Below, piece after piece: positions 6,258-35,219 of a DNA stretch of 64,000 nucleotides. Source of the stretch: Dehalococcoidia bacterium (GTDB taxonomy: Bacteria > Chloroflexota > Dehalococcoidia > DSTF01 > WHTK01). Below the pieces are notes generated by a model that saw only the letters and a program-made list of their open reading frames with translations, ran no database searches and was not told the origin of the DNA. The position numbers and the translations under genes were made by a program. Numbering within the stretch: position 1 is the first letter of the stretch; every line of letters begins with the position of its first letter. The stretch is taken from positions 6,460 to 70,459 of the forward strand of contig DATLYJ010000078.1 of the NCBI GenBank assembly GCA_035574915.1, written 5' to 3'.

Positions 6258-6372
6258 GAGACCACTGTAGGGGTGCCCGGCAAGCCCGTCGAGTGGCCGA
6301 TGGAGCGCATCGGGCGCTGGTGCAGGATCGGACGCCCATGGGGTTGTAAGGGGCTGCCGCCCTGCGTGATAT

Positions 6373-8913: not shown

Positions 8914-10179
8914 CTACTTACCGAGGCCGCCGATGCCCCGTGGCGGCCCCTCGGCCAGCTTCAGCGCCGTGGCTTCGTCGGTGCCCCAGGAAGCGGGGGT
9001 CATCTTCAGCGCCGTAACCGGCCAACTGTATCCGTCGTCGACGCGGATCGCCGCCACGCCGAGGTCGTGCGGCTCGCGCTTGGCCACGACGAAGCGGCCG
9101 CCCGGGGACCAGAAAACGAGGCAGCCGTCGCCGAGGAAGCGCAACTCCTTCGACGAGAGCGACTCGAGCAAGTAGAGGTTGTGCTCCTTGCGGTTGAGGC
9201 TGTAAGTCGAGAGCACCATCTGCGAGCCGTCCGGCGACCACTTCATCTCCCCCGCGTACCCCTCCCGCAGATAGTACGTCAGCGGTTCGCCCGAGCCGTC
9301 CGAGAGCGCGATGTGCATCACAAAGGGCCACGCGACGGGACTGAAGGCGATGCGGCTTCCGTCCGGCGACCACGAGATCGCCAGGCTGCCCGGCGCCCGT
9401 TGCCCGGGCGGCGACGACAGCAGCCGCCCGGCGTTCGCGACCAGCTGGACAACGCCTGCCCCGTCCACCGTAAGGAGCTGCCAGCCGAGCGCGTCGTCCT
9501 GGGCGAACGCGAGCCGGCGTCCGTCGGGTGACGGCACGAAGCCGGTTAACACGGACGCGACCTTATAGATGCCGCGGACGCTGCCGTCGCGGGCGAGCCA
9601 GAGGAGCGGCGTATCCGTGGCGGCATCGAGTGTGGCGAAGACAAGGCCGCCGTCGGAGGTCCAGGCGAACGCCGTGGCTCCCGCGCCCAGCGTGGTCACG
9701 GATCGAGTGGACGGCTCGACCAACATGATGCCGCCGTCATCGTCGAGTGCGGCAAGGACTTCGCCGACGGGCGACCAGGCGGCGTCTCTTAACCCGGCGG
9801 CGAGCTCGACCGGTTGCGGCGTCTGACCTTCGGCCGGCAGCGTGGCGTCCCAGAACAAGAGCTGGCAGGGCGTGTTCCCGAGGCAGTGCCGGAAGGCCTG
9901 CCAGCGTCCGCTCGCAGAGGTGGCCGGGCGATAGGTGTTCTCCTGGGCCCTGCCCAGTTCGGCGCCGTCTGGCGTGAATCGGTACAGGAGGTTCGATGAT
10001 CTCAGGACGATAACACCGTCCGCTGAGGGGTCGGGCACCACCTCATCGGGTTCGATGACCGTTACAGCAGCGGGCGCCGCGGGGTCGGGAGCGTCTCGGC
10101 GCACCGCGACATACACGCTCGCCAGGATGGCTGCGAGCGATACCAGGCTGCTGGCAAGCAGGAAGACTCTCCAGCGCAT
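8914..10179 (-). CDS. membrane-anchored PD40/TolB-like beta-propeller protein
   Basis: N-terminal TM (VFLLASSLVSLAAILASVYVAV); repeats SWSPDGSRIAF and KWSPDGSQMV; strong RBS AAAGAGGAGGG upstream. Confidence 0.7.
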   Translation of the reverse strand: MRWRVFLLASSLVSLAAILASVYVAVRRDAPDPAAPAAVTVIEPDEVVPDPSADGVIVLRSSNLLYRFTPDGAELGRAQENTYRPATSASGRWQAFRHCLGNTPCQLLFWDATLPAEGQTPQPVELAAGLRDAAWSPVGEVLAALDDDGGIMLVEPSTRSVTTLGAGATAFAWTSDGGLVFATLDAATDTPLLWLARDGSVRGIYKVASVLTGFVPSPDGRRLAFAQDDALGWQLLTVDGAGVVQLVANAGRLLSSPPGQRAPGSLAISWSPDGSRIAFSPVAWPFVMHIALSDGSGEPLTYYLREGYAGEMKWSPDGSQMVLSTYSLNRKEHNLYLLESLSSKELRFLGDGCLVFWSPGGRFVVAKREPHDLGVAAIRVDDGYSWPVTALKMTPASWGTDEATALKLAEGPPRGIGGLGK

Positions 10180-10332
10180 GACGGCCCTCCTCTTTAACGA
10201 CGTATCGTCGTGACGGCCATTATCACAGCGCCACCGGAAATGTCACTACCCTCGGGCCGGCTGGTCTGCTGGCCGGCTGGCCGCCCAGCGCCCGCCGTTG
10301 CCTCGCTGTAGGCGCCCTTCGGAAAGGGCGCG

Positions 10333-11412
10333 TCAGACGCCGCCCGGCGGTGTCACCGACGGCGACGCGGGCCGGGACGCCAGCCAGGCTTCTACCTTGT
10401 CGAGCGGTACCTGCCAGTTCATGCGCGACAGGTAGGGCTTGAAGCCAAGCTCGTTGTTGATGCGGAGCATCGGGGCGTTGGACTGGGCGTTGCCCGTCCG
10501 GATGAAGCGGACCAGGGGCCGCTCGCGCAGGACCTTGTCGAGCATCGATGCCTTCAGCCACTTGCCCAGGCCGCGGTTGCGGAACTCGGGGAAGACGCCG
10601 GTGTCGCCCTGGTTGAGCTCGTAGGGCAGACCGGGCCGGTAGAGGACCTCGGTATAGCCGGCCAGGCGGCCGCTCTCTCGGTGGCGGACGTACATCGTCC
10701 AGCGCTCCCAGTTGGCGGCCCGCTCGTACGCCTCGAGTTCGCGCAGGCGCTCCGGCGTCATCGGCGAGTCCTCCATGGCGAGGTCGTCGCGTGGGGCGGT
10801 GTTCATCACCTCCATCAGGGCAACGATGGCTTCGAGCTGGTCCTCCGGCATGGCGCCTTCGACCAGCACCATCTCGAACTCCCTCTCGAGCGAGGAACCG
10901 AGCGCGAGCCAGTCCGCCAGCGCCTTCCAGTTGACCTCGTCGATGTTGAGCTGGTTGGTGTACACCGCCTGCGCGGGCGTCGCGCCCAGGGCCCGCATGA
11001 AGGCTTCGCCGCCGGGCGCGCGTGAGGTGGTCGAACCGAAGAGCATGGTCCGGCCGTCCGCCTTCGAGGCGTCGACGACCAGGCGCAGCAGGGCCGTGCC
11101 GAGCCCTCTGCGCCGCCAGGCGGGATCGACGCTGATGTACGCCCAGGCGGGCGTGGCGGTTGTACGGCGTGCGCTGCAGCGAGACGCCGCCGCTCGCCAC
11201 GATCGCGCCCTCTCGCCACACGAACCACGTGCGCTGGTCTACGTAGGAGGGCAACTCGCGGTAGTTGAGCTTCGTCTCCTCGAGGGGCGTCGGAGGGTCG
11301 TCGGGCCAGGACTCCGCTGCCGTGAGGTTGTCGAACGCGTTGATCGCGACGAAGTCGGCGTCAGTGGCGGCGCCCCGGTCGAATGGTCGGATGTCGAAGC
11401 CTGGGCCGGACA
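10333..11412 (-). pseudogene. GNAT-family N-acetyltransferase, apparently frameshifted near 11155-11175 (or sequencing error)
   Basis: C-terminal part (frame of ORF 10333..11046) continues upstream as ...PAWAYISVDPAWRRRGLGTALLRLVV (GNAT acetyl-CoA motif). A plausible N-terminal part (MSGPGFDIRPFDRGAATDADFVAINAFDN...WFVWREGAIVASGGVSLQRTPYN) lies in a different frame starting at 11412. The two frames join only with a 1-nt indel. Confidence 0.5.
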
Positions 11413-11662
11413 TGAGGCGCCTCGTGCCGAGATGTAACGAGAAGTGTAGCGGAAAGGACAAGCGACGAGGGTCGCGTAACCCGCGGCCGACTTGCCCGCC
11501 TCCGTCGGAGCCTACTCTGCACGACGGGACCGCAGGCGCAGCCGCCTCTAGCGAGAGTCGCATCTTCGGGCGCCGCCCGCTTCCCGCTCCGCTCTTCCTT
11601 GTCCCCTGTTCCGTGTTCTCTGATACTTCGACTCACGACACACCCGCTTAGGAGCACCGACC

Positions 11663-12832
11663 ATGGACTTCCAGCTCACAGAGCAGCAGAAGCTGATCCA
11701 GGAGACCGCCCGCCGCATCGCTCGGGAGAAGGTGGCGCCGCGCGCCGCCGAGATCGACGAGAAGGAAGAGTACCCGGAGGACATCTATCAGGCCTTCAAG
11801 GAGGTCGGCCTCCTGGGGCTCTCCATTCCGCAGGAGTACGGCGGCTCCGGCGCCGGCGTGCTCGCCCTCGCCCTGGCCGTGGAGGAGGTCGCGAAGTACT
11901 GCTGCTCCTCCGGCCTCATTCTCCTGCTCTCCATGCTCTCGACCCAGCCGATCATCATTGGCGGTACGGAGGAGCAGAAGAAGCGCTGGGCCGGGGCCGT
12001 CGCCCGCGGCGAAATGCGCGCCTCCTTCTGCCTCACCGAACCCTCGACGGGCTCCGACGCCGCCAACCTGCGCACCCGCGCCGTCCGCGACGGGGATGAC
12101 TACGTCCTCAATGGCGAGAAGTCCTACATCTCTGGCGGCACCGTCGCCGATTTCGTCACGCTGTTCGCGAAGACGGACCCCACCGCCGGCTCGCGCGGCA
12201 TCACCGGCTTCATCATCGACGCCAAGAACACGCCCGGCTTCTCGGTCGCCCGCACGGACCGCAAGATGGGAGTGAAGGCCGTCGCGACGGCACATTTCGC
12301 CATCCAGGACGCCCGCGTCCCGGCCGAGAACGTCATCGGCGGCAGCGAGGGGCGCGGATTCAATGCGGCGATGCTCGGCCTCAACACCTGCCGCCCCGTG
12401 GTCGGCGCCCGCGGGCTCGGCCTCGCCGAAGGCGCGCTCGCCTACGCGCTCGAGTACGCGCGCAAGCGCGAGGCCTTCGGCTCACCGATCGCAGACTTGC
12501 AGGCGATCCAGTTCATGCTCGCCGACATGGCTATCGCCATCGAGGCCTCACGACTCCTCGTCTACCAGGCCGCCTGGAACGTCGACCATGGCCTCTACCA
12601 GCGCGAGCACGCCCACTACCTCTCGATCGCGAAGGCGTTCGCGACCGAGACCGCGGTCAAGGTGTCCTCGGACGCGATCCAGATACTGGGCGCGCAGGGC
12701 TACATGATGGACCACCCGCTGGAGCGGCATTACCGCGACGCGCGTCAGCTGATGATCGTGGAGGGGACGAGCCAGATCCAGCGCGTCCTGATCTCGCGCG
12801 CCCTCCTCGACCGCAACCTTGTGTACGCGTGA
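11663..12832 (+). CDS. acyl-CoA dehydrogenase
   Basis: 389 aa with ACAD signatures (CLTEPSTGSDAANL, YISGG; C-terminal QILGAQGYMMDHPLERHYRDAR). Confidence 0.9.
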   Translation: MDFQLTEQQKLIQETARRIAREKVAPRAAEIDEKEEYPEDIYQAFKEVGLLGLSIPQEYGGSGAGVLALALAVEEVAKYCCSSGLILLLSMLSTQPIIIGGTEEQKKRWAGAVARGEMRASFCLTEPSTGSDAANLRTRAVRDGDDYVLNGEKSYISGGTVADFVTLFAKTDPTAGSRGITGFIIDAKNTPGFSVARTDRKMGVKAVATAHFAIQDARVPAENVIGGSEGRGFNAAMLGLNTCRPVVGARGLGLAEGALAYALEYARKREAFGSPIADLQAIQFMLADMAIAIEASRLLVYQAAWNVDHGLYQREHAHYLSIAKAFATETAVKVSSDAIQILGAQGYMMDHPLERHYRDARQLMIVEGTSQIQRVLISRALLDRNLVYA

Positions 12833-21634: not shown

Positions 21635-22747
21635 ATGACCTTCCTTGCACTCATCCTCAAGAACCTCTTCCGCCAGCGCATCCGCACGGGCCTTACGGTG
21701 CTGAGCATCAGTCTCGGTATCACGACGGTGGTGACCCTGGGCGTCGTTACGAACAGCCTGAAGAGCACGGCGGGCGAGATCATCCGCTTCGGCGGAGCAG
21801 ACTTCATGGTCGCGCAGGAGGGCGCCGCCGACCTCAGCTTCTCCGTGGTTGCCGAGGACGACGTCGCTGCGCTCGCTCGCGTGCCCGGCGTTGCCCGCGC
21901 CCAGCCGGCGCTCGTGCACATTACGCGGCTCGGGTCCAACCCCTTCTTCTTCATGGTCGGCCTGCGGCCCGAGGACGTGGCCGCCAGCCCGCCGGCCCTG
22001 CGCTCCGGTACGGTGCTCAGCGGCGCGCCGGACGAAGTGATGCTGGGGCACAGGGCGGCGCGAGACCTCGGCGTCGATGTCGGGGATAGCGTGACGATTG
22101 ACCAGAGGGAGCTCAGGGTTGTCGGCATCTATGTGACCGGTTCCCTGTACGAAGACGGTGGCGCTTACGCGCCGCTTGCCACCGTGCAGGACATAGCGGC
22201 GAAGACGGGCGTGGTCACCGCGGTCTTCGTCACGGCCGCGCCGGGCGCCGACCCGGCAGACCTGGCAGACGAGGTCGAAGAGCGCTTCCCGAACCTCGCC
22301 ACCATCGCCGACGTGTCCGAGTACGGGAAGGTGGACCAGGGCATCACCCTACTCGACGCAGCCAACCTGGCAATCTCGATCCTGGCAGTCGGTATCGGCG
22401 CCATCGGCGTCATGAACACGATGGTGATGTCCGTGTTCGAGCGGACGCGGGAGATAGGCATCCTGCGGGCGGTCGGCTGGAGCGGCAGCCGCATCCTGCG
22501 CATGGTCCTGAGCGAATCCGTCTTTCTCTGCCTGATCGCGGCGGCTGTGGGGTCGGCGGTAGCGGTCGCGGCGACCCAGGCGCTCCTCCTGGTCGATACC
22601 ATCCGCAACCTGCTCGAGCCGCAGTACACGCTCTCGGTGTTCCTGCGCGCCCTGGTCGTGGCCGTGGCCGTGGCGCTGGCCGGCGCCGCCTATCCAGCAT
22701 TCCGGGCGGTGCGTCTCACCCCGATGGAGGCGCTCCGCTATGAGTGA
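21635..22747 (+). CDS. ABC transporter permease (FtsX/MacB-like)
   Basis: N-terminal TM, large extracytoplasmic loop, three C-terminal TMs; overlaps the ATPase gene by 8 nt. Confidence 0.8.
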   Translation: MTFLALILKNLFRQRIRTGLTVLSISLGITTVVTLGVVTNSLKSTAGEIIRFGGADFMVAQEGAADLSFSVVAEDDVAALARVPGVARAQPALVHITRLGSNPFFFMVGLRPEDVAASPPALRSGTVLSGAPDEVMLGHRAARDLGVDVGDSVTIDQRELRVVGIYVTGSLYEDGGAYAPLATVQDIAAKTGVVTAVFVTAAPGADPADLADEVEERFPNLATIADVSEYGKVDQGITLLDAANLAISILAVGIGAIGVMNTMVMSVFERTREIGILRAVGWSGSRILRMVLSESVFLCLIAAAVGSAVAVAATQALLLVDTIRNLLEPQYTLSVFLRALVVAVAVALAGAAYPAFRAVRLTPMEALRYE

Positions 22748-23450
22748 TGCGCGAAGGATCGTGGAGATGCGAGGCGTGGTGAAGACGTTCGAGGACGGAC
22801 GCGTTCGCGCCCTGGACGGCGTCGACCTCGAAGTCTACGCCGGGGAGTGGGTGGCCGTGGTCGGGCCTTCCGGCTGCGGAAAGTCGACGCTGCTGCACCT
22901 GATCGCTGCCCTGGACCGCCCGGACTCGGGCACGATCATCGTCAATGGCGAGGACCTCGGTAAGGAGAGGGACCTTTCTCGTCACCGCGCCCGCGAAGTG
23001 GGGCTGGTGTTCCAGTTGGACAACCTGCTGCCCACGCTGACGGCGAGCGAGAACGTGCAGGTACCAATGTTCGAGGCGGGGATCAGCGCCAGCGAACGGC
23101 AGGCCCGCGCCCTGAACCTTCTTGACCTTGTCGGCCTGGCGGACAAGGCGCACAATCGGCCGAGCCAGCTGTCAGGCGGGGAACGTCAGCGCGTTGCGAT
23201 CGCCCGGGCGCTCGCGAACGAGCCTGGCATCCTCCTCGCCGACGAGCCGACGGGCCGCCTCGACTCCACAAGCGGCCGCCGCATCCTCGACCTCCTCGAC
23301 GACCTGCGCCGGAAACGCGGACTCACGATCATCCTCGTAACTCACGACCCCGCGGTGGCGGCGCGAAGCGACCGCGTCGTGCGCATGCTCGACGGGCGGG
23401 TGGTGGGAGAGGAACGGCTGCAGGCGGCGCCGGGCGCGGCGGCGTCCTGA
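22740..23450 (+). CDS. ABC transporter ATP-binding protein (LolD/MacB-type)
   Basis: Walker A GPSGCGKST, signature LSGGERQRVAIARAL, Walker B ILLADEPTG. Confidence 0.9.
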   Translation: MSDARRIVEMRGVVKTFEDGRVRALDGVDLEVYAGEWVAVVGPSGCGKSTLLHLIAALDRPDSGTIIVNGEDLGKERDLSRHRAREVGLVFQLDNLLPTLTASENVQVPMFEAGISASERQARALNLLDLVGLADKAHNRPSQLSGGERQRVAIARALANEPGILLADEPTGRLDSTSGRRILDLLDDLRRKRGLTIILVTHDPAVAARSDRVVRMLDGRVVGEERLQAAPGAAAS

Positions 23451-23465: not shown

Positions 23466-24719
23466 TCAGCGCCGCGCTGGCCGCTCGCGGAACACGGCGT
23501 GGATTAACGGCAGGGGCGGCGGCCGTTCGGCCGCGGGCAACGCCTCGGCCTCCGCGGCCAGGCGGTCGCGGATGCGGTAGAGCACATCGCCGAAAACGGT
23601 CTCGTGATACAACCAGCGGTTCAGCCGCATGGCGCCTGGCAGGGCAGCGCCGCTGGGTTGGGCAGCGGCGGCCTCCAGGTAATACGCCTTCATGTCCTCC
23701 ACCAGCAAGCGCAGGGCCGCGCGCAGTGGCACATCGCCGCCGATGGGGGCTCCGGGCGTCTCGCCCGCGGCAACGGCTGCAAGGTACGATGCGGCCTCGC
23801 CGATGCGGGAGGCGGCGAGGCCGCTGGCGCCGAAGGTCGTGCGGCGAAGTCGGCGCACCGACTCCTCGTACCAGGGCATGAGGAGCCGGACCTCAGCCTC
23901 CAGCGCCTGCTTCAGCGAGGCGGCCGCGTCCGCGTGCGCCTGCAATGGAGGCAGGGGCAGGACGCAGCTCCAGCCGTCCTCCTGCGCCGTCGCATCGGTC
24001 GGGGAGTCGAACGGGTAGTCCTCCAGCACCGGCCCTGACGCGCATTCGAAGAGGCGCAGGAGGGCGCGCAGGACACCCAGTTGGAAGTCGCGCTGGTTCG
24101 GTGGTCCAAAGGGGCGCCCGAAGGGAAAGGAGACCCAGAGGGCGCGCGGCGGGTGGATGAACTCGGTGTGCTCACGCACGAGGCTGATCCCGGCAGTAGG
24201 GACGCCTTCGGCCTCGATGTAGTGTGCGAGCCCGCCGACGGCGCGCGTGCAGTTGGGTCAGACGGGTACGAGCACGGCGCCTGTGACGGCGTCGCGGCGC
24301 AACAATCCGCCTACCTGGCGGCCGGCGTCTTCCAGGCGCGTGGGGTCGGTCGCGCCCATGAAGGAGTAGTGCCAGGCGGCTACGGAGCCGATCTCGCCGC
24401 GCCGCGCAAGCTCCTTGAGGAGGTCGAGGGGAAAGACGACTTTGACGTCTTGCTGGAAGCCGGTGCGGTCGAAGTTGACGCTGCCGTGGCTCATGACGAG
24501 GCTGGCCGCATCGACCTCCCCGGGGATGATGCGGTAGTCTGTCGCGCCGCCGCTGAATCGGGCGTCCTCCTTCCGGTGCAGTCCGGCGGTGCTCACGATG
24601 GCGACGCGCATCTCACGCAAGGGCGGGGCAGGAGCCCAGGGCGTCGACTCGAAGGCGGGCAGCGGCAGGCGCCGGTAGGCGTCCGCAAGCTCGGGCGGCA
24701 GGTCGCTCAGCCTCACCAT
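23466..24719 (-). CDS. GrdB/PrdB-family (glycine/betaine/sarcosine/D-proline reductase protein B-like) putative selenoprotein with in-frame TGA at 24258..24260
   Basis: ORFs 24258..24719 and 23466..24179 are in the same frame, separated only by a TGA with no other stop. Read-through gives ...AVTGAVLVPV-U-PNCTRAVGGLAHYIEAEGVPTAGISLVREH..., matching my recollection of the GrdB Sec motif (...VITST-U-GTCTRCGATM...AGIPVVHV). Confidence 0.6.
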
Positions 24720-25186
24720 CGCAGCCCCGCTACTATAACGGCATTTCGGGCCAGGCCACCGCCTCGTTCAGGGGGATGCCAGTTGTCTAGTCCACCACGA
24801 AAGGAGGCAGGTGTCCGGCATCCGACGAACGAGTACAGAAAAATTGCTCCCTCTCAATCCCCTGTGCTATCCTGCGATGCGTGCCTATGACCTAGTGGTT
24901 CGGCGGAACGGTCCGCAGGCAGAAGTCGACAGGCACTAATCCAGGCCATCTGGTGGCTGCGGCGAGGCTCCAAGGGGAAAAGCGAGCCCGCCGGTTCCTT
25001 CGCAGGAAGGATGCCCCTCCTCCTCTCCCAGGACGGACGGGGAACGCTACTGGGGGCCTTTTATCGCGCCCATTTTCGGGCGTGTCCCTGAGGAGGGGGC
25101 AACCTTATCGGCAGGAGCCCGGCCGCAGACCAAGGCCAGGCCGGGCACAAGGTCGCCTGGGGCGGCAACAAGGAAAGGGGTGAGCT

Positions 25187-25621
25187 ATGCACTTGACTGT
25201 TGACGGCTTCGGTGGGGACCGGGAGCTGTTGAGCAACGAGTCGTTGGTGCGCTCGCTCCTCGACCGGCTCCCCGGCGAGATCAACATGACCAAGATCACC
25301 GAGCCTCACGTCTTTCGCTATGTGGGCGACAAGGCGGAGGACTGGGGCATCTCGGGTTTCGTCCTGATCGCCGAAAGTCACATCGCCGTCCACACGTTCC
25401 CGGAGCGGGGCCTGATCTGGGCCGACGTCTTTTCGTGCAAGGCCTTCGACGGCGACGGCGCCGTGATCAGCCTCGCCCAGGCATTCAAGCTGGACTCGGT
25501 CAGGGTCGAGACGCACGAGCGCGGCCTGGAGTATCCGCACAGCATCGCCGAGGCGAAGCCCGTGGCGATGTATGAGCGGCGGCTTGTGACCGGCGCGCTG
25601 GTCGGCGCCGACTCCCACTAG
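25187..25621 (+). CDS. speH: S-adenosylmethionine decarboxylase proenzyme (pyruvoyl-dependent, class 1 SpeH type)
   Basis: Self-cleavage/active-site motif FVLIAESHIAVHTFPE; about 144 aa. Confidence 0.85.
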   Translation: MHLTVDGFGGDRELLSNESLVRSLLDRLPGEINMTKITEPHVFRYVGDKAEDWGISGFVLIAESHIAVHTFPERGLIWADVFSCKAFDGDGAVISLAQAFKLDSVRVETHERGLEYPHSIAEAKPVAMYERRLVTGALVGADSH

Positions 25622-25696
25622 GACCAGACGCGGCCGGTCGCGCCCCGCGCATCCCCGGCCGCTCCGTCCCCGCAGCCGCACGTCCAGGAGTCTGAC

Positions 25697-26725
25697 ATGT
25701 CAGAGTTCTTGCACACTCACGTCCGTCCCTTCGAGGTCCGGCCGGGGCAGACACCTTCGCAGCTCATGCACGGGCTGCACGGCACTTCCTTCCAGGCCCG
25801 CAACCTCGGCACCGCCACGCGCATCTGGAAGCGCATGATGGAGGACGAGATCACCATCTTCCTCGGCATCGCCGGGGCGATGGTCCCCGCCGGCATGCGC
25901 AACGTGATCCGGTTCCTCATCGAGAACCGGATGGTCGACGTCATCGTGAGCACGGGCGCGAACATGTTCCACGATGTCTACGAGACTCTCGGCAAGCCTC
26001 ACTGGCAGACGGTGCCGGGAGGGCACGACATTGACCTCGGCAAGCACCGCATCAACCGCTTCTACGACGTCCTCGCGCCGGAGAGCGACTTCGCCGACGC
26101 CGAAGAGTTCGTCGTCGCCTTCGCGCAGACGCTGGAGGAGAACAAGCCGATCTCTACGCGCGAGTACTTCCGCCGTCTGGGCGAGGCCCTGATCCCGATG
26201 GCGAGCGAGGACGGCATCCTGACTGCCGCGGCAAAGCACGGCGTGCCGATCTACAGCCCTGCCCTCGGCGACAGCGTCCACGGCCTCGCCATCGCCACCG
26301 GGCGCGTGCGCAGCGGCCACCGCCTGGTGTTCGACATCATCGGCGACGTGCTCGAGACGTCGCACCTGGCGCTGACGGCGAAGGGTACGGGCGTGATTTA
26401 CATCGGCGGCGGGACGCCGAAGAACTTCATCCAGCAGGCAGAGGTGGCGGCCTACATCTACGCCCGCGAGCTTCCCGGCCACAAGTACGGCATCCAGGTG
26501 ACGATGGACCAGCCACAATGGGGCGGGCTCTCCGGCTGCACCTTCGAAGAAGCCCAGTCCTGGCGCAAGATCGCCCCGGATGCCGACTTCGTGACCGTGA
26601 ACGTCGAGGCCTCCGTCGCGGTGCCGCTGATCGTGAGCGCGCTGGCGGACGAACTGGGTGAGAAGCTGCGCGACCGCAAGCTCCCCGAGCTGGACTTTGG
26701 CAGCAGCACCCGCGGCGAACGGTAG
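25697..26725 (+). CDS. deoxyhypusine synthase-like protein (DHS family; possible homospermidine-synthase-like)
   Basis: 342 aa with DHS-family motifs (IFLGIAGAMVPAGMR, STGANMFHD, YIGGGTPKNF) and an NAD-binding fold. Confidence 0.8.
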   Translation: MSEFLHTHVRPFEVRPGQTPSQLMHGLHGTSFQARNLGTATRIWKRMMEDEITIFLGIAGAMVPAGMRNVIRFLIENRMVDVIVSTGANMFHDVYETLGKPHWQTVPGGHDIDLGKHRINRFYDVLAPESDFADAEEFVVAFAQTLEENKPISTREYFRRLGEALIPMASEDGILTAAAKHGVPIYSPALGDSVHGLAIATGRVRSGHRLVFDIIGDVLETSHLALTAKGTGVIYIGGGTPKNFIQQAEVAAYIYARELPGHKYGIQVTMDQPQWGGLSGCTFEEAQSWRKIAPDADFVTVNVEASVAVPLIVSALADELGEKLRDRKLPELDFGSSTRGER

Positions 26726-26792
26726 ACGTTATTATACTGTTGGCCGTAAAAGTATAGTAACTGCGAGAACTAATAAAGGGAGCTTTGGTAGC

Positions 26793-28001
26793 TTGAACCG
26801 TAAGGCCTTTGCGGCACCAGCGGGTCGTCTAGTCTGGACCCCTGGCGGTTACTGGGCGTTTGTGCCGGAGCGCTTGAGCCGGCAAACTTCGCTGGATCCC
26901 GACGTCATCTATCTCCTTTCGGAGGCTGATCGCCACCTGGGCGAACTTGCGGGAATGGCAAGGGTGCTGCCGAACCCGCAACTGCTGATTGCGCCGCTAA
27001 GCCAGCGCGAGGCCGTGCTGTCCTCCAGAATCGAAGGCACTCAGGCCTCGCTCTCAGACCTCGCTGTATTCGAAGCTGCCGGCCGCGCGATCCCGGGTCT
27101 GAGCTCGGACGTGGTGGAGGTGCTGAACTACAGGCGTGCAATGTCCTTCGGCCTGGAGCGTCTCGCGGAACTCCCACTTAGCCTGCGGCTCGTGAGAGAG
27201 CTGCATGCCCATCTGATGAGCGGCGTACGTGGACAGGAAAAGGCGCCGGGAGAGTTCCGGAGCTCACAGAATTGGATCGGGTCGCCCGGCAGCAGTCTGG
27301 AAGAAGCCACCTATGTACCGCCACCACACACGGAGATGCATGACTGCCTGGCTGACTGGGAGCGCTTCCTGCACGAGGAGACCGTTACTCCGCCGCTCAT
27401 TCGTTGTGCCCAGATGCACTATCAATTTGAAGCAATACACCCGTTCCTGGATGGAAACGGTAGAGTGGGCCGGCTGCTGATAACACTCTTCCTGTGCACC
27501 CTCGGCAGGCTCCCGAGCCCCGCCCTCTACCTCAGCCCGTACTTCGAGCGTCACCGCACCGAGTACTACGACCACCTGCAAGCAGTAAGCGAGCGCAGCG
27601 AGTGGCAGAACTGGTTCAGATTCTTCGCCAGGGGCGTCATAATACAGTCCCGTGACGCCCTTGCCCGCTTCGACCGATTACTCAAGCTCTACGAGGACTC
27701 GCGTCGCCAGTTGCTATCGTTTAGGGCCGCACCCTCGGTGCTTCGGTTACTGGAAGCTCTCTTCACCAGTCCCGCGGTTACCGTAGCATCCGCGGCTGCC
27801 ACGTTGGGCGTGACGCCGGTAAGCGCCACTCACGCCATCGACACCCTTATCGAGCGTGGGATCCTTCAGGAGATAACTGGGCGCCGAAGGGATCGCGTGT
27901 TCTTGGCGCGGACCATACTGCGAGCCATTGAAGATCCGACCGAGGTCGAACGAGAAGACGCTAATGGGCCTACGCTATTTAAGCCAGGAGCCTCCCCCTA
28001 A
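26793..28001 (+). CDS. Fic-family protein (class II: N-terminal inhibitory helix, C-terminal winged HTH)
   Basis: Fic motif HPFLDGNGRVGR; inhibitory motif SSRIEGT (S-x-x-x-E-G); C-terminal wHTH. TTG start with an AAAGGGA RBS. The gene sits in a local low-GC patch. Confidence 0.75.
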   Translation: MNRKAFAAPAGRLVWTPGGYWAFVPERLSRQTSLDPDVIYLLSEADRHLGELAGMARVLPNPQLLIAPLSQREAVLSSRIEGTQASLSDLAVFEAAGRAIPGLSSDVVEVLNYRRAMSFGLERLAELPLSLRLVRELHAHLMSGVRGQEKAPGEFRSSQNWIGSPGSSLEEATYVPPPHTEMHDCLADWERFLHEETVTPPLIRCAQMHYQFEAIHPFLDGNGRVGRLLITLFLCTLGRLPSPALYLSPYFERHRTEYYDHLQAVSERSEWQNWFRFFARGVIIQSRDALARFDRLLKLYEDSRRQLLSFRAAPSVLRLLEALFTSPAVTVASAAATLGVTPVSATHAIDTLIERGILQEITGRRRDRVFLARTILRAIEDPTEVEREDANGPTLFKPGASP

Positions 28002-28090
28002 AGGAGTGCGGCCCGGTATGAAGGCGCGGTTTATTTTCGTCGAACCTGACGCGCTAACCTGCTGACCCGCTAAAGTGCTGATCTGCTGAC

Positions 28091-28315
28091 ATGCCAATCC
28101 ACGCCTGCCGCACCACTCGCATCTACTGCCTCGAGGACTGCCCGCCGGGGCGGCGCACCAAGCCCGAGAACCGCCTCTCCTTCCCCTCACGCGCCGAGGC
28201 TGAGGCCGCGGGCTTTCGCGCCTGTCGAGTCTGCCGCCCGGACGTCTACGAGGGGACCTGGCAGCCGAAGGCATCGCGGGCTGCGGTCCAGGGCCCGGGC
28301 CACCTGGCGAAGTAG
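28091..28315 (+). CDS. small Ada-like zinc-binding domain protein
   Basis: 74 aa; YCLEDCPP...AGFRACRVCRP resembles the Cys4 Zn site of the Ada N-terminal domain. Confidence 0.5.
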   Translation: MPIHACRTTRIYCLEDCPPGRRTKPENRLSFPSRAEAEAAGFRACRVCRPDVYEGTWQPKASRAAVQGPGHLAK

Positions 28316-28516
28316 CCTCCCAGGCGAAGTGGCGATGGCCGAGCCAGCGCAATCCGCGCGCGCTCGTGACGGGCGGCAACCCAAGCCAAGCCACGTCTCC
28401 GGCGTTCTCGCACCACGGAGGTAGAAGGCCAGCTTCGCTTCTGGCAGGTGTCTACGCCGACCCCATGGCGCTCCTGACCTGTGGCCCCTTCAGTCGATAA
28501 TCGAATAAGAGAACGG

Positions 28517-29326
28517 ATGTACAGCAAGCCAGCACCTCACCTCGGGGGCCTCTTGCTCCTGGCCGTCTTGCTCTCGCTCGCGTGCGAGGGCACGAGTCCC
28601 GTTAGGACTTCATCGGACACTGGAACGCCTGCCGCTACCTCACCCGCACCGCCAGCGGTTGCGCCGGCACCGACGGCAACGACGACGCCCGGCCGGCAGC
28701 CCGCGCGCGTCCTCAGGGTCGTGGACGGCGACACGATCGACGTGCAGCTCGACGGCGCGACCGTGCGCGTGCGCTACATCGGCATTGACGCGCCCGAGAC
28801 GGTCGACCCCAGACGGCCGGTGGGCTGCTTCGGGGCGGAGGCATCGGCCCGCAACCGGGCGCTGGTCGAGGGCAGGCAGGTCGAGCTGGAGAAGGACGTG
28901 AGCGAGGCGGACAGCTTCGGCAGGCTGCTGCGCTACGTCTACGTCGACGGGGCCATGGTCAACGAGACGCTAGTGCGGGAAGGCTACGCCCAGGTCGCCA
29001 CCTTCCCGCCGGACGTGAAGTACGTGGACCGCTTCCTGGCGGCGCAGAGGGAGGCGCGGGAGGCGAACCGTGGCCTCTGGGGCGCCTGCGTGGCGGCCAC
29101 ACCCACCCTGGCGCCCGGCGGCAGCGCTTGCCCCCAGGGCTGTGCGGTGCCGCCGCGCGGCTGCGTCATCAAGGGCAACATCAGCCAGGGCACGGGCGAA
29201 AAGATCTACCACGTGCCCGGCGGCGAGTTCTACGACCAGACGGTCATCGACCCGGCCCGCGGCGAGCGCTGGTTCTGCACCGAGGCCGAGGCCGTTGCCA
29301 ATGGCTGGCGCAAGAGCCTGCGGTAG
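28517..29326 (+). CDS. thermonuclease (SNase-like) lipoprotein with C-terminal Cys-rich GNIS...GEKIYHVPG domain
   Basis: Signal and lipobox LLSLAC; SNase core (VVDGDTIDV...RYIGIDAPE...GRLLRYVYVDG); C-terminal KGNISQGTGEKIYHVPGGEFYDQT...WFCTEAEAVANGWR. Confidence 0.8.
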   Translation: MYSKPAPHLGGLLLLAVLLSLACEGTSPVRTSSDTGTPAATSPAPPAVAPAPTATTTPGRQPARVLRVVDGDTIDVQLDGATVRVRYIGIDAPETVDPRRPVGCFGAEASARNRALVEGRQVELEKDVSEADSFGRLLRYVYVDGAMVNETLVREGYAQVATFPPDVKYVDRFLAAQREAREANRGLWGACVAATPTLAPGGSACPQGCAVPPRGCVIKGNISQGTGEKIYHVPGGEFYDQTVIDPARGERWFCTEAEAVANGWRKSLR

Positions 29327-29329
29327 CGT

Positions 29330-30934
29330 TCAGCTTCCCTGCCACCAGGCGAAGTAGCGATCCCAGGGGATGTACCCATAGAAGCCAAACCAGAGCGCCG
29401 GGTCTTGAGCGGAGCGCGGCCACGAGAGGTCCGTGACTTTGACGGGAGTGCCGTCAGTGACGGGCAGCAGCCAGAGCGAAGCCACGTCCTCGGCGTTGTC
29501 GATGCGGGCGAAGAGCAGGCAGGAGCCATCGCGCGACCACAGGGGCCGCTCGTCGCGGTAGGCCGGGTCGTCCGTCAGCTGCCGCTTGTTGGCCCCGTCT
29601 GCGTCCATGACCCAGATGCGCCGCTGGCCCGCACCCTGCCTCGCGTCGTCGCCACCGCCGACTGGCCCTATGTCAGGCCCCGCGACGTAGGCCACCTGGC
29701 GCCCATCCGGTGACCACTCGGGCGAGAAGGCAGCGGTGTCGGTGCCCGTGAGAAAGGTCACAGCTCCGCTGGCCGTATCGACGACAGCGATGCGTTTGCG
29801 GGTCCATGTCTCGCGGCCAAACCCCTCTGTGAGGGCGAGTGCAGTCCTGGAGGCGAACTGACCTATCAGTTCGTCGCGGGTCAACGCCACGACGCCGAGC
29901 CTGCGTGGCGCACCACCGCCGACAGAAATGGCGTAAAGGGGCAGGCCATCAGCCGCGATGGACGCAGAGAACTGAGGATTCAATGAAGAGAGGATCGACG
30001 ACCCGTCCGGCGTCCAGCGGAGCACCCCGACCTGCCCGCTCTCGGGCCCGGCATAGGCATCGTTCGCGTACAGCAGCTGCGCATTCGTCCCGTCGGCGTT
30101 CGCCACCCACAGGCTCGATAGGCGGCTATACGGCTCCTGTGAGCGGTTCAACGGTCCGTCAGCCGCGTACGCCAGCTTGGCGCCGTCCGGGCTCCAGTAG
30201 GGGCCTCGGATCGTCGTGCCAGCGGCAGCGCCAGGGAGCAAGGCCCGGATGCTGATGGTGCGAAGCAAGGCGCCGGTCGGCGCCTCAAGCCTGAAGCCGC
30301 CGGCGGGGTCGACGCAGGCGAGCTCGTCGGCGACCGGCGACCAGGCGACGCAGCCCGGTGCGGCGCGCCGGCGGCCGCCGTCCGCTCTGACCACGGTTTC
30401 GCCAGCGAGTAGCCACTCCCCGGACGGCGACCAGCGCGGGTAGGACATCTGCCCGTTGGTCGTGAGACGCACGGGCCTTCCGCCCGGGAGAGACATGACC
30501 CAAAGGTCGCCGTTCCGGATATAGGCGAGCTTGCCGAGACTGCCAGGTTCGCCGGTCGGGCCTGACTCCTGTGGGCCAAGGTCCAGGAGCAGCGCCAGGG
30601 CGAGCAAGAGTGCCGCGCCAACTACAACCAGGGCGCCAGCACCGGCCGCCACCTTCGCCGCCGCGCCGGGCGTTGCCTTCCTGAAGAGCAGAGTCAAGGG
30701 CGCCAGCGCGCCGAGTCGACGAGCCTCTCGCTCTGGCGTCCAGGCGGCGGCTTGTTCCCGGCTCGAAACGCCGAGCTTCGTGATGATCTCTGACACGTGG
30801 TACTTGGCGCCGTCGAGCGTGAGGCCGAGGCGGCGGGCAATCTGCTCATTGGTCAGCCCCTGCCGCAGCAACTCCAGCACTTGCCACTGACGCGGCGTGA
30901 GGATGTCAGGGTGTCTTGGGCGCCCGCGTCTCAT
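29330..30934 (-). CDS. membrane-anchored LuxR-family HTH regulator with PD40/TolB-like beta-propeller domain (paralogue of 7452..8834)
   Basis: N-terminal HTH (LTPRQWQVLELLRQGLTNEQIARRLGLTLDGAKYHVSEI); TM (ALVVVGAALLLALALLL); PD40 repeats (PRWSPSGEWLL, YWSPDGAKLAY, RWTPDGSSIL, EWSPDGRQVAY). Confidence 0.7.
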   Translation of the reverse strand: MRRGRPRHPDILTPRQWQVLELLRQGLTNEQIARRLGLTLDGAKYHVSEIITKLGVSSREQAAAWTPEREARRLGALAPLTLLFRKATPGAAAKVAAGAGALVVVGAALLLALALLLDLGPQESGPTGEPGSLGKLAYIRNGDLWVMSLPGGRPVRLTTNGQMSYPRWSPSGEWLLAGETVVRADGGRRRAAPGCVAWSPVADELACVDPAGGFRLEAPTGALLRTISIRALLPGAAAGTTIRGPYWSPDGAKLAYAADGPLNRSQEPYSRLSSLWVANADGTNAQLLYANDAYAGPESGQVGVLRWTPDGSSILSSLNPQFSASIAADGLPLYAISVGGGAPRRLGVVALTRDELIGQFASRTALALTEGFGRETWTRKRIAVVDTASGAVTFLTGTDTAAFSPEWSPDGRQVAYVAGPDIGPVGGGDDARQGAGQRRIWVMDADGANKRQLTDDPAYRDERPLWSRDGSCLLFARIDNAEDVASLWLLPVTDGTPVKVTDLSWPRSAQDPALWFGFYGYIPWDRYFAWWQGS

Positions 30935-31043
30935 CGCGGATCAATGTACCCGCGTGGGCTGCGAATTACTCTACCCGGACTGGCTTACCACCTCCTGGTG
31001 CTAGGCAGGATCGCCGCGAGAGTGGCTGCCGGCGGCCTGCCGG

Positions 31044-31586
31044 CTACGGCGCCGGCGCCTCCGCCGCAGATCGGGCCCGGACGCCGATGGTGCGGGCGTC
31101 GCGCCACCACTCACCCTCTGCGATTACCTCCGGCCGCTGCTGCCGAGAGGCGAGGTCGCTCAGCGGCGTCCCTGTCTGGGGGTGAATCAACCGCGGGTCG
31201 AGGTCGAGGAGCGGGAAGAGCACGAACGCCCGCTCGCCGAGCCGCGGGTGCGGCACCGTCAGCGCCTCGCTCTCGAGCACTAGGTCGCCGTAGAGGGCGA
31301 TGTCGATGTCTATGGGCCGAGGGGCCCAGCGTGGAGCGGGGCGCCGGCCGATCATGTGCTCGACCCGCTTGGCGTGCGCCAGCAGGAGGTCCGCGCCCAG
31401 GCCGGTGACGACGCGGCAGGCAGCGTTGTAAAAGTCCGGCTGGTCGGAGCCGTCAGCCGGCGGCGATTGGTACAGCCGCGACACCGCCTCGACCCGCACG
31501 AGTGGACCCAGCATTCGCAGCGCCAGCGCGATGTTAGCCGCGCGGTTGCCGAGGTTGGAGCCGAGGGACAGGTAGATGCCGGCCAT
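31044..31586 (-). CDS. folK: 2-amino-4-hydroxy-6-hydroxymethyldihydropteridine pyrophosphokinase
   Basis: MAGIYLSLGSNLG...ALYGDLV...PHPRLGERAFVLFPL is the HPPK signature. Confidence 0.85.
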   Translation of the reverse strand: MAGIYLSLGSNLGNRAANIALALRMLGPLVRVEAVSRLYQSPPADGSDQPDFYNAACRVVTGLGADLLLAHAKRVEHMIGRRPAPRWAPRPIDIDIALYGDLVLESEALTVPHPRLGERAFVLFPLLDLDPRLIHPQTGTPLSDLASRQQRPEVIAEGEWWRDARTIGVRARSAAEAPAP

Positions 31587-31655
31587 GGTGCAGAGTGCAG
31601 AGTAACCATCGCGGCGTGCAGGCGGAAGCCGCCCTCGTCCGTGCGCCATGCGCGC

Positions 31656-32489
31656 CTACGCCCGCCAGCCTCGGACGATGGCGTCGGCCATGCGCGCGAC
31701 CTCCACCATCTCGGCGACATCGTGGACGCGCACGATGTCGGCGCCGTTGGCGATGGCAAGGGCAACGGTGGCTGCGGTCCCAAACAGGCGTCCCTCGACA
31801 GGCTTGTCGAGCACCGCGCCGATGGTGGACTTGCGGGACGTGCCCACGAGCAGGGGCAGACCGAGGTCGCGCAGCTCACCCAGACGCCGTAGCATCTCCA
31901 GGTTCTGTTCCGGACTCCAGCCGAAGCCGAACCCGGGGTCGGCGATCAATTTCTCGCGCGCCAACCCCGAACGCCCGGCGATGTGCAGGCTCTCCTTTAG
32001 CCCGCGGCGGATGTCACCGATCACGTCCTCGAACTCCCGCCCGCGCTGGTTATGCATCACCACCGCCGGCACCCCGCGCTGGGCGGCGAGCACTGCCAGC
32101 GCCGGGTCGTGGCGAAAACCCCAGATGTCGTTGAGCAGCGAGGCGCCGGCGTCGAGCGCCGCCTCCGCGACCTCGCGCCGGTAGGTGTCGATGCTGACAG
32201 GCAGGCCGACGCGCTTCACGATGCGCTCGATCGCCGGCACGACGCGCCGGATCTCCTGGGCGGCGCTGATCTCCTCGAACCCCGGGCGGGTGGACTGGCC
32301 GCCTACGTCCAGCAAGTCCGCCCCCTCTTCCGCGAAGCGCTCCGCCTGGCGCAGCGCATCCTCGGCGCGCGCCAGGCCATCGCCGGAAAAAGACTCGGGC
32401 GAGACGTTGATTATGCCCATGACGTACGTCCGCGCACCCCACACGAAGGTGCGGCCGCCAATCTCCAGGCTCCGGGGCGCGTCTGAGGT
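31656..32489 (-). CDS. folP: dihydropteroate synthase
   Basis: YVMGIINVSPESFSGDG...DVGGQSTRPG...SIDTY...LLNDIWG. The tracker's 380-aa ORF has about 100 aa of upstream Arg/Pro-rich junk; start assigned at MTSDAPRSL. Confidence 0.85.
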   Translation of the reverse strand, partial: TSDAPRSLEIGGRTFVWGARTYVMGIINVSPESFSGDGLARAEDALRQAERFAEEGADLLDVGGQSTRPGFEEISAAQEIRRVVPAIERIVKRVGLPVSIDTYRREVAEAALDAGASLLNDIWGFRHDPALAVLAAQRGVPAVVMHNQRGREFEDVIGDIRRGLKESLHIAGRSGLAREKLIADPGFGFGWSPEQNLEMLRRLGELRDLGLPLLVGTSRKSTIGAVLDKPVEGRLFGTAATVALAIANGADIVRVHDVAEMVEVARMADAIVRGWRA

Positions 32490-32539
32490 CATGGAAACAG
32501 GATAGAGAACAGGGAGCACTTCTCCGCTATCCTCAGGCC

Positions 32540-33532
32540 ATGGTCTTCGAACGAATGCCGGCCGACCCCGCCTTCGCGGGCATACCGACCTTCCTGAAGT
32601 TGCCACACGTGGCCAGCGCCGAGCAGCTCGCGGCGGAGAGGCCGGATGTCGTGGTCGTCGGTGCGCCCTTCGATATGGCAGTCGTGAACCGGCCAGGCGC
32701 CAGGTACGGGCCACGAGCGATCCGCCAGGCGTCAAACCTGGGCCGGGCCGTCTACCACCTCGAGCTCGAGGTGCAGCCGACTCGCGTCCTGCGTGCATTC
32801 GACTACGGCGATGCCGCCATCGTGCCTTCGAGCATAGAGCGCTCGCACGAGGCGATCCGTCAGAAGGTCGCGGAGGTGGCCGCGCTTGGCGCCGTGCCTG
32901 TCGTCCTCGGCGGCGACCACTCGATCACGCTGCCGGCCGCGACGGCCGTCGCGGACGCGGTCGGACGCGGGAAAGTCGGCATCGTCCACTTCGACGCCCA
33001 CGCTGACACGGCGAACGACAGTTGGGGCGTCCTGCTCGCCCACGGCACGCCGATGCGGCGGCTGATCGAGAGCGGCGCGGTGCCCGGGCCGAATTTCGTG
33101 CAGGTGGGCCTGCGCGGCTACTGGCCGCCGCCAGACGTGTTCGAGTGGATGCGGGCCCAGGGCATGCGCTGGCACTTCATGCACGAGATCGAAGCCCGCG
33201 GCTTCGACACCGTCCTCCAGGAGGCGATCGAACAGGCGCTGGACGGCCCGGAGGCGATCTACCTCTCGCTTGACATCGACGTCCTCGACCCCGCCTTCGC
33301 GCCGGGCACCGGCACGCCCGAGCCGGGCGGCCTGACGTCGGTGCAGCTGCTGCGCGCGGTGCGCCGGATCGTGGAGCGCGTGCGGCTGGTGGGCATGGAC
33401 GTGGTCGAGGTCGCGCCGGCATACGACGGGCCCGGACAGATTACGGCCGAGGTGGCGCACCGGCTGGTGCTGGAGGCGCTCAGCGCCCTGGCCAGGAAGG
33501 CTTCCCCGAAGCCGAGCGACGCGAGCCCGTAG
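32540..33532 (+). CDS. speB: agmatinase / arginase-family ureohydrolase (second paralogue)
   Basis: GGDHSIT, DAHADT and SLDIDVLDP motifs; 330 aa. Confidence 0.85.
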   Translation: MVFERMPADPAFAGIPTFLKLPHVASAEQLAAERPDVVVVGAPFDMAVVNRPGARYGPRAIRQASNLGRAVYHLELEVQPTRVLRAFDYGDAAIVPSSIERSHEAIRQKVAEVAALGAVPVVLGGDHSITLPAATAVADAVGRGKVGIVHFDAHADTANDSWGVLLAHGTPMRRLIESGAVPGPNFVQVGLRGYWPPPDVFEWMRAQGMRWHFMHEIEARGFDTVLQEAIEQALDGPEAIYLSLDIDVLDPAFAPGTGTPEPGGLTSVQLLRAVRRIVERVRLVGMDVVEVAPAYDGPGQITAEVAHRLVLEALSALARKASPKPSDASP

Positions 33533-33645
33533 GGTCGCGAAAGTCTGCTGACGCCCGCTGTCAGTGGACCCCTCTCCCCCGCTATCGGTGCCAGAATATA
33601 TGTGCTAGCCTGGGCCTCCCGCTAAAGAAGCAAAGGAGGTTCGAG

Positions 33646-34071
33646 ATGGTAAGGGCAAAACCGGACAACTATCACACGCTAACGCCCTTCTTCCAGCTAA
33701 GGGGCGCCGACAGGTTCCTCGACTTCGTGAAGGACAGCTTCGGCGCCGAAGTCACGGAGCTCGTGCGCGCGCCGGACGGCTCCGTAATGCACGCCGAGTT
33801 CCGCATCGGCGATTCCATGGCCATGCTGGGTGAAGGCGACCCGAAGCCCCTGGCCCTGTACGTCTACATCGACGATGTGGACGGCGTGTACCAGAAGGCG
33901 CTGGCCGCCGGCGGCAGGTCGTCCCAGGAGCCGCGGGACCAGTTCTGGGGCGACCGCCAGGCAGCGGTGCTCGACGCCTGGGACAACATGTGGTTCATCG
34001 CGACTCACACGGAGGACGTGTCGCCGGAGGAGCTACAGCGCCGCATGGCCGCCGCCGCGCCGGCCGGATAG
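33646..34071 (+). CDS. VOC-family (glyoxalase/bleomycin-resistance fold) protein
   Basis: 141 aa with PhnB-like composition (HAEFRIGDSMAMLGEG...). Confidence 0.65.
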   Translation: MVRAKPDNYHTLTPFFQLRGADRFLDFVKDSFGAEVTELVRAPDGSVMHAEFRIGDSMAMLGEGDPKPLALYVYIDDVDGVYQKALAAGGRSSQEPRDQFWGDRQAAVLDAWDNMWFIATHTEDVSPEELQRRMAAAAPAG

Positions 34072-34146
34072 GCCGCGGCAGGAGGACTCCGGCGGCGAGT
34101 GCGGGTGCTACACTGCGTAGCACCCGCACTTGTTTCGGGAGGACGC

Positions 34147-35100
34147 ATGCGCTACCGGATGCTCGGCCGCAGCCAGCTGATGACGTCGGAGGTCGGCTTC
34201 GGCGGCTGGGCGATCGGCGGCGGCTGGGGCCCGGTCGACGACGACACCTCCATCGCCGCGATACGCAAGGCAATCGACGCTGGCGTCAGCTTCATCGACA
34301 CGGCCGACGTTTACGGCGAGGGCCACGGCGAAGAAGTGATCGGCAAGGCCCTCGAGGGCAACGCCAGGCACCGCGCCGTCATCGCCACCAAGGCAGGCCT
34401 GAAGGCCCCTTCAGGCCACGACTTCAGCCCGGCGCACATCGAGAAGGCCCTGGAGGGGTCGCTGCGGCGCCTGGGCACCGACTGGGTCGATGTCCTGCAA
34501 CTGCACAACCCGACCCGGGCGGCGCTGGAGGACCCGGAGCTCTGGGAGACCCTGAAGCGCCTCAAAGCGGAGGGGAAGATCCGCGCCTATGGCGCCAGCG
34601 TCCGTTCGCCCCGCGAGGCCGTCCTTGCTATAGAGAACGGCGACGTGGACACCGTGCAGGTGGTCTTCAACGTGATCGACCAGGAGGCGCGCGAGCTCTT
34701 CGAGACGGCGCGCGCCCACAGGGTGGGCGTCATCGCTCGGGTGCCGCTCGCCTCCGGCTTCCTCACGGGGAAGTACTCCCACGACCACAAGTTCCACCGC
34801 ACCGACTGGCGCGCCCGCCTGGGGCCGGCCCGCCGCCGGCAGATGCTGCGCCGGGCCGAGGCGCTCGACCCTGTCGCCCGCGGCGTCGGGTCGAGCAAGG
34901 CGCAGGCGGCGCTGGCCTTCGTCCTCTCCTACCGCGACGTCGCCGTCACGATCCCTGGCGTGAAGACGCCGGAGCAAGCGGAAGAGAACGCCGCTTCGTC
35001 CGACGTCGCGCCGCTGCCGGCCGAACTCCTGCGCTACCTCGAGCAAGCTTACGAGGAGACCGAGGCGCCGACGCTCAGCGCCGCGGCAAGCGAGGCCTAG
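34147..35100 (+). CDS. aldo/keto reductase
   Basis: MRYRMLGRSQLMTSEVGFGGWAIGG...IDTADVYG...LHNP motifs. Confidence 0.85.
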   Translation: MRYRMLGRSQLMTSEVGFGGWAIGGGWGPVDDDTSIAAIRKAIDAGVSFIDTADVYGEGHGEEVIGKALEGNARHRAVIATKAGLKAPSGHDFSPAHIEKALEGSLRRLGTDWVDVLQLHNPTRAALEDPELWETLKRLKAEGKIRAYGASVRSPREAVLAIENGDVDTVQVVFNVIDQEARELFETARAHRVGVIARVPLASGFLTGKYSHDHKFHRTDWRARLGPARRRQMLRRAEALDPVARGVGSSKAQAALAFVLSYRDVAVTIPGVKTPEQAEENAASSDVAPLPAELLRYLEQAYEETEAPTLSAAASEA

Positions 35101-35103
35101 CGG

Positions 35104-35219
35104 TGGCCGAGATCAGCCTCGCCATCCTCGTGTTCGGCGTCCTCCTCGTCGCTGACCCAGAGCGCCTCCAGCAACTGCTGGACCGCGTGCGCGACGTCAT
35201 CAACTGGCTGGCCGAATAG
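35104..35219 (+). CDS. small hydrophobic ORF (38 aa, GTG start)
   Basis: VAEISLAILVFGVLLVADPERLQQLLDRVRDVINWLAE: one TM plus an amphipathic tail. No strong RBS; low support. Confidence 0.25.

Follow-up and report, generated by a model that had tools for sequence, protein, structure and literature searches.

The closest described relatives of the gene discussed here are selenoprotein subunits of two reductase systems: PrdB in the D-proline reductase of Clostridium sticklandii and C. difficile, and GrdB/GrdF/GrdH of the glycine, sarcosine and betaine reductases. A further relative comes from the sea. In the surveys of Zhang and Gladyshev, 'Proline reductase PrdB' ranks with the selenoprotein families of highest abundance in the Sargasso Sea (2005; PMC1088965) and in the Global Ocean Sampling (GOS) data (2008; PMC2398784). 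Table 2 of the GOS study assigns the family to pfam07355, gives its motif as UxxC and counts 235 selenocysteine (Sec) and 110 Cys sequences, and under '#Proline reductase' its supplement includes reads such as LLVPVUPNCTRAVGGLGHYFESEGI...WYEVS...EDLKAYYYESVLAQPG (PMC2398784). In this work we describe a relative of these proteins in a 64-kb stretch of a Dehalococcoidia metagenome-assembled genome (MAG; GenBank contig DATLYJ010000078.1, positions 6,460 to 70,459), referred to below as the window, in which a minus-strand gene at 23466..24719 contains an in-frame TGA.

Like the marine family, the protein encoded in the window has the Pfam domain, the Sec motif UxxC, the string VUPNCTRAVGG, a C-terminal extension with matching motifs, and homologues that carry Cys. 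It differs in that this copy comes from a 67%-GC Dehalococcoidia MAG (the GC content of the window) rather than from a marine read, and in that GenBank does not annotate it as a selenoprotein. The supplementary GOS sequences contain 'UPNCTR' 20 times and 'UPFCTR' 38 times. The window gene belongs to this same family, whose selenoprotein status has been known for about twenty years, and it is a new, mis-annotated member. What we add is a precise model of the hairpin that follows the TGA, with the Cys forms as a control, together with the linkage of the family to sel gene clusters, its scores below the cut-offs for PrdB and GrdB membership, its family-specific helical domain and its association with TauD. 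Literature searches on PrdB-like and GrdB-like proteins, on betaine reductase with TauD and on SAR202 selenoproteins returned nothing relevant.

We read the locus as encoding a 417-residue selenoprotein of the GrdB/PrdB superfamily, with UGA154 recoded by SelB and tRNA-Sec, which most likely acts as a stand-alone reductase; we put the probability of this reading at about 0.88. It is very probable that 23466..24719 is a single gene and that its internal TGA encodes Sec. The Sec assignment draws on four independent lines of evidence, namely the conservation of the TGA, the Cys homologues, a hairpin under selection and linkage to Sec genes. That this organism actually incorporates selenium at the codon we infer from these sequences.

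Translation of the minus strand finds the TGA at 24260..24258 to be the sole stop between ATG 24719 and the terminal TGA. The original prediction had described two minus-strand open reading frames (ORFs), 24258..24719 and 23466..24179, sharing one frame and parted only by this TGA, with LVPV-U-PNCTRAVGGLAHYIEAEGVPTAGISLVREH as the read-through context and about 260 residues after the Sec, unlike PrdB or GrdB. Its coordinates, frame and peptide are all correct: the two ORFs lie in one common frame, the read-through translation gives the same context, and 263 residues follow the Sec, including an extension absent from both PrdB and GrdB. The N-terminus MVRLSDL is matched in homologues (MVRLSDL, MVRLTDL, MVKLSDL), and full-length Cys homologues of 415-430 residues align with the window protein from end to end. 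The downstream ORF is 100% identical to VNN10_07290, deposited for a Dehalococcoidia bacterium as 'MAG TPA: hypothetical protein'; this 237-residue entry is an artefact of annotation, produced by the split at the UGA. The correct product is the 417-residue selenoprotein, and the gene is split in the same way in most database homologues.

Homologues at codon 154 carry either TGA or a Cys codon. Searching one genome per species yielded relatives in at least 585 genomes, and the best 80 loci were examined. These span Chloroflexota/Dehalococcoidia, Alpha-, Gamma- and Deltaproteobacteria and Spirochaetes; every motif-matched homologue among them has TGA at codon 154, and no TAA, TAG or sense codon was seen at that position. 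In the whole set of fetched loci the codon is TGA in 111 and TGC or TGT in 55; neither TAA nor TAG was found. It had been proposed to check whether orthologues carry Cys, and they do, both in these 55 loci and in each of about 40 aligned full-length database homologues (PV-C-PNC-T/S-R). Cys157 is retained in the aligned Cys forms. In an alignment of six full-length proteins Cys157, Thr158, Arg159 and Ala160 are invariant, and all four residues lie inside what would be the linker between the two ORFs. The resemblance to a GrdB-type Sec context, noted in the original prediction, also stands: the Sec of a canonical GrdB from locus L001 (LVAT-U-GSCNRCGAT) aligns exactly on the window TGA.

Two single loci deserve mention beside these counts. 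Protein P0002 (L085 6390 / L086 551) is a TGC form whose downstream DNA is almost identical to that of the Sec form L057 and in which the whole hairpin is retained; TGC seems to have replaced TGA, and hence Cys Sec, in the recent past. A Sec form with the variant motif U-PNC-TT lies on L037, a 2.6-kb contig binned as Nitrosopumilus sp., and its presence in an archaeal bin is probably a binning error.

A GC-rich hairpin had been predicted just 3' of the UGA, and it folds as described, at -12.6 kcal/mol with a GUC loop. Its structure is (((..((.((((...)))).))..))), in which a lower stem UGC/GCA is followed by a small internal loop and then by an upper stem (24246..24230; GCGCGCC/GGCGGGC), which has a single G.G mismatch and carries the apical GUC at 24239..24237. 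A small apical loop containing G is a hallmark of the bacterial Sec insertion sequence (SECIS) element (PMC1088965). The hairpin recurs among Sec forms. We compared the entropy of third codon positions in 85 distinct Sec-form DNAs and 40 distinct Cys-form DNAs. In the Sec forms the paired third positions +15, +18, +21, +27 and +30 are near-frozen (0-0.55 bit), while the loop position +24 and the out-of-stem position +33 vary (1.4-1.7 bit); variation of 1.2-1.8 bit is also seen at four-fold sites upstream of the UGA. The paired positions are unconstrained in the 40 Cys-form DNAs, at 1.6-1.9 bit.

Folding energies and pairing follow the same division. The mean free energy of +10..+36 is -3.65 kcal/mol in Cys forms versus -12.5 in the first Sec set, and a further Sec set of comparable local GC (0.49-0.61), independent of the first and drawn from marine metagenomes, averages -9.1. 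Of the upper-stem cells in 84 distinct sequences, 85% are paired, versus 28-62% with slid partners, and there are 13 compensatory double-sided cells (GC to UA, AU or CG), a number reached by none of 500 shuffles. These comparisons identify the hairpin as a conserved, putative SECIS-like element that is under selection and specific to Sec forms. The Sec/Cys pairs, including the P0002 conversion, offer a clean natural data set on the decay of SECIS elements within coding sequence.

Tandem paralogues occur in nine alphaproteobacterial loci (L039, L042, L045, L056, L065, L073, L077, L079 and L080; about 8460 and about 9690). Each copy has its own TGA, and the hairpin of the second is register-shifted, as GCGCGGUCG-GUG-CGGCCGCGC. 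Apparent 'extra paralogues' in Dehalococcoidia loci are overlapping spurious ORFs, and we discarded them.

The fourth line of evidence is the position of the gene in related genomes. Three Chloroflexota loci (L008, L020 and L022), whose protein is 60-62% identical to that of the window, have the order selA, tRNA-Sec, selB, selD and then the family gene. The selA of L008 matches TIGR00474 with 564 bits and its selD scores 346 bits, and selB scores 317-321 bits in L022 and L020. In L012, selD and selB lie beside the gene (9408-12302); the alphaproteobacterial L049 and L052 have tRNA-Sec and selD immediately upstream of it, and L063 has selD near it. Altogether, a sel gene lies no more than 8 kb from the family gene in 11 of 85 loci, and the commonest family in a Pfam survey of 108 immediate neighbours is the SelD type (AIRS). 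In several Chloroflexota, the family gene is physically part of the Sec-machinery neighbourhood.

This neighbourhood occupies 3225-9170 in L008 and equivalent positions in L020 and L022. The selB of L008 was matched in two pieces that overlap (4882-5466 and 5357-6760), pointing to a frameshift or a fault of assembly. In some marine Proteobacteria, SelD-related fusion proteins of 739-766 residues adjoin the family gene (L065 8017-10233, L070 9264-11561, L044 3322-5586).

Table 1. Features of the predicted selenoprotein gene, in window coordinates
Feature	Position	Strand	Remarks
Predicted selenoprotein coding sequence, complete	23466..24719	minus	417 residues including Sec154; ATG 24719, terminal TGA 23468..23466
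In-frame TGA, predicted Sec codon 154	24258..24260	minus	U of the U-x-x-C motif
Cys157 codon, TGC	24249..24251	minus	putative resolving Cys of U-P-N-C; also 5' side of the lower SECIS stem
Putative SECIS-like hairpin	24225..24251	minus	+10..+36 from the U of UGA; 7 nucleotides past the UGA; inside the coding sequence
PrdB/GrdB-like catalytic alpha/beta domain	24048..24638	minus	residues 28-224; U-x-x-C centre; motifs TAGLH, MSHxSxNFDRxGF, HYSFMG
Family-specific C-terminal extension	23469..24032	minus	residues 230-417; all-helical in the model of a homologue
GenBank-annotated fragment VNN10_07290	23466..24179	minus	237-residue 'hypothetical protein'; split at the UGA

Several observations weigh against this reading. 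No selA, selB or selD was found in the window by tblastn with SelA, SelB and SelD of related Chloroflexota, and ARAGORN reported no tRNA there, hence no tRNA-Sec; the search for the machinery covered the 64-kb window. The 68 nucleotides after the UGA fold no better than chance in a 67%-GC background (z = 0.64 versus shuffles), and we therefore rejected single-sequence folding as stand-alone evidence; the significance of the hairpin comes from the comparative analysis only. Within that analysis, a first covariation count over 66 sequences found 4 pairs with double changes and a score that was not significant, and covariation became stronger only once an independent clade was added. Strong conservation of the region keeps it modest, and part of the hairpin's own conservation could stem from that of the peptide TRAVGG. 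The window's clade has no conserved partner or pathway context. The structural model described below is of a 42%-identical Cys homologue and not of the window protein; the PDB holds no related entry by sequence or by Foldseek, and the model resembles solved structures only in its generic fold. Finally, what we say of the function, including electron donor, chemistry and the kind of substrate, is entirely inferred.

The alternative that survives best, although we consider it improbable, is that the gene encodes a bona fide PrdB or GrdB, that is, a subunit of D-proline reductase or of glycine, sarcosine or betaine reductase, with its partner subunits elsewhere in the genome. Profile searches, run with Cys substituted for the in-frame stop, bear on this directly. 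The original prediction of GrdB/PrdB-family similarity stands at the level of the superfamily: the protein passes Pfam PF07355 (GRDB) with 30.8 bits against a gathering threshold of 22 over residues 18-151, and its best NCBIfam match is PrdB (TIGR04483; 1.7e-28), residues 28-224 covering positions 20-218 of the 238 in the model. It does not extend to membership of the described families, where the scores fall far below the cut-offs: 99.7 bits versus 300 for the PrdB equivalog, and, for the GrdB and selenoprotein-B models that had been named (TIGR01917 and TIGR01918), 26.7 versus 602.2 for GrdB and 34.2 versus 65.45 for the selenoprotein-B subfamily. Both the Joint Genome Institute (JGI) and the selenoproteome literature use the name 'D-proline reductase PrdB'; the membership tests leave that name, borne by an abundant family of the ocean, unsupported.

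Architecture separates the proteins further. With PrdB the window protein shares a homologous alpha/beta core, Sec in a U-x-x-C motif and a presumed selenol nucleophile resolved by Cys; PrdB, however, has about 240 residues and ends about 90 after its Sec, whereas the window protein adds a helical domain of about 190 residues, which is foreign to GrdB as well. With GrdB/GrdF/GrdH it shares the Pfam GRDB match, alignment of Sec on Sec and a hairpin directly 3' of the UGA, but it has no counterpart of the N-terminal domain of about 200 residues (matches begin at about model position 205), and its U-PN-C-TR-A lacks the third Cys of UxxCxxC, which the GrdB of L001 retains as U-GS-C-NR-C.

In gene context, a point in favour of a true PrdB or GrdB is L001, from a marine Dehalococcoidia MAG, where the gene adjoins thioredoxin, a canonical Sec-containing grdB and a grdE-like gene (PF09338) at 1-2874; this arrangement was seen in one locus only. 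(The grdB of L001 encodes 449 residues, is called across its own in-frame TGA in the source annotation and has no Pfam match on record.) Against this, PF09338, the PrdA/GrdE family, is not among the families common to at least two of the 108 immediate neighbours, a GrdE-like tblastn query has no match in the window, and neither a prdA pyruvoyl subunit nor a prd operon was found near the window gene. The gene had been described as standing alone, outside any grdA/grdE/trx operon, and we agree: no grdA, grdE or prdA was found nearby, and the window has no grdA/grdE/grdC/trx operon. The family is moreover abundant in the oxic surface ocean and occurs in aerobes, and at least one clade lies in aerobic-type operons with TauD dioxygenases. 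The window family is probably not a true proline reductase.

We consider it still less probable that the UGA is read by means other than Sec, either through near-cognate insertion of Trp or Cys or through reassignment of the codon. The case for such readthrough is that the evidence for Sec machinery comes from relatives and not from this particular genome. Against it, UGA retains its role as a stop here: it ends several neighbouring genes as well as the selenoprotein gene itself, and the code is thus not reassigned. The hairpin just 3' of the UGA has the bacterial SECIS form, its apical loop being small and opening with G; tRNA-Sec, selA, selB and selD adjoin the orthologue in related Chloroflexota; and homologues have Cys at the aligned position, as is usual opposite Sec. 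The least probable explanation, that the TGA is a genuine stop separating two genes (153 residues, and 237 residues from GTG 24179) or marking a nonsense pseudogene, could appeal to GenBank holding only the 237-residue ORF, to gene callers splitting the homologues likewise and to the window's want of Sec machinery, but the 78 nucleotides from TGA to GTG encode the family's most conserved peptide in frame, the TGA is kept in 111 loci over several phyla and never replaced by TAA or TAG, which is not how a nonsense pseudogene behaves, some 40 aligned homologues carry Cys and are each one polypeptide, and the annotated downstream starts vary in position among homologues.

Returning to the selenoprotein reading, the AlphaFold model of the Cys homologue (mean predicted local distance difference test score, pLDDT, 86.8; predicted template modelling score, pTM, 0.85) places the C/U-x-x-C loop in an alpha/beta domain at about residues 35-240; the domain after it, at 266-425, is all-helical. 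No Pfam or NCBIfam family matches the C-terminal extension. A search of residues 230-417 against 1.84 billion representatives gave 388 matches; among the 150 matches listed, nearly all have the length and position of post-UGA fragments of the same family and none has another architecture, so we regard the extension as family-specific. Cys252 (about 23964-23966), in the context WSC-VLPLPP in the window and ACPV elsewhere, is shared by at least 90% of the family and falls in a low-confidence interdomain loop of the model (pLDDT about 56). It is a possible third redox or ligand residue.

The mechanism we propose takes its chemistry from GrdB and PrdB, as set out in a review (PMC13188914) and in general knowledge of those enzymes. 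UGA154 would be recoded to Sec by the bacterial SelB/tRNA-Sec system, directed by the GC-rich GUC-loop hairpin within the coding sequence, which would place Sec in the U-P-N-C redox centre of a Rossmann-like alpha/beta domain. By homology with these enzymes, the selenol would act as the catalytic nucleophile in a reductive step and attack the substrate, Cys157 would resolve the resulting selenoether adduct to give an Se-S bond, and a dithiol system such as thioredoxin would re-reduce that bond. The protein is most likely a stand-alone reductase acting on a substrate other than D-proline or glycine, since no PrdA/GrdE pyruvoyl partner or GrdA was found nearby and the protein has a helical domain of its own.

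All-against-all clustering of the ORFs of 85 loci found no universally conserved neighbour, only clade-specific synteny. A strong link appears in a sister clade with the motif C/U-PNC-T/S-R-x-x-C, in which a TauD/TfdA-family Fe/2-oxoglutarate dioxygenase is either adjacent on the same strand or fused C-terminally. This linkage is present in 35 of 55 Cys-form loci and in 26 Sec-form loci. Examples are L084 (9265-10143), L071 (4741-5724) and many of L088-L167, with a fusion in L087 (8001-10175); the fusion proteins include P0013, P0024 and P0147. A TauD query had no tblastn match in the window. The linkage suggests small-molecule catabolism in aerobes. A more specific proposal, which we put forward tentatively and with some doubt, is that the family is a self-contained, PrdA-independent selenol/thiol reductase in which the helical domain replaces the pyruvoyl subunit, serving aerobic catabolism and, in one clade, obligately accompanied by a TauD partner or fusion. 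If true, this would assign a new enzyme activity to one of the ocean's most abundant selenoprotein families. The helical domain, the lack of a PrdA or GrdE partner nearby and the TauD linkage of the sister clade are the available handles on the substrate.

In the window, the gene lies between an ABC exporter and speH, as had been noted. It is convergent with a MacB/FtsX permease and ABC ATPase pair (21635..23450), and speH, encoding S-adenosylmethionine (AdoMet) decarboxylase, is divergent from it on its 5' side (25187..25621, plus strand). A gap of about 470 nucleotides (24720-25186) separates the selenoprotein start from speH; Rfam, run over the whole window at gathering thresholds, gave no match and recognised no riboswitch or leader upstream of speH. 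A deoxyhypusine-synthase-like gene (25697..26725) follows speH, its end overlapped by a mechanically called Fic-domain ORF (26658..28001), and an arginase-family gene lies at 32540..33532. Together, over 25187-35219, the speH, deoxyhypusine-synthase-like and arginase-family genes suggest a polyamine gene neighbourhood.

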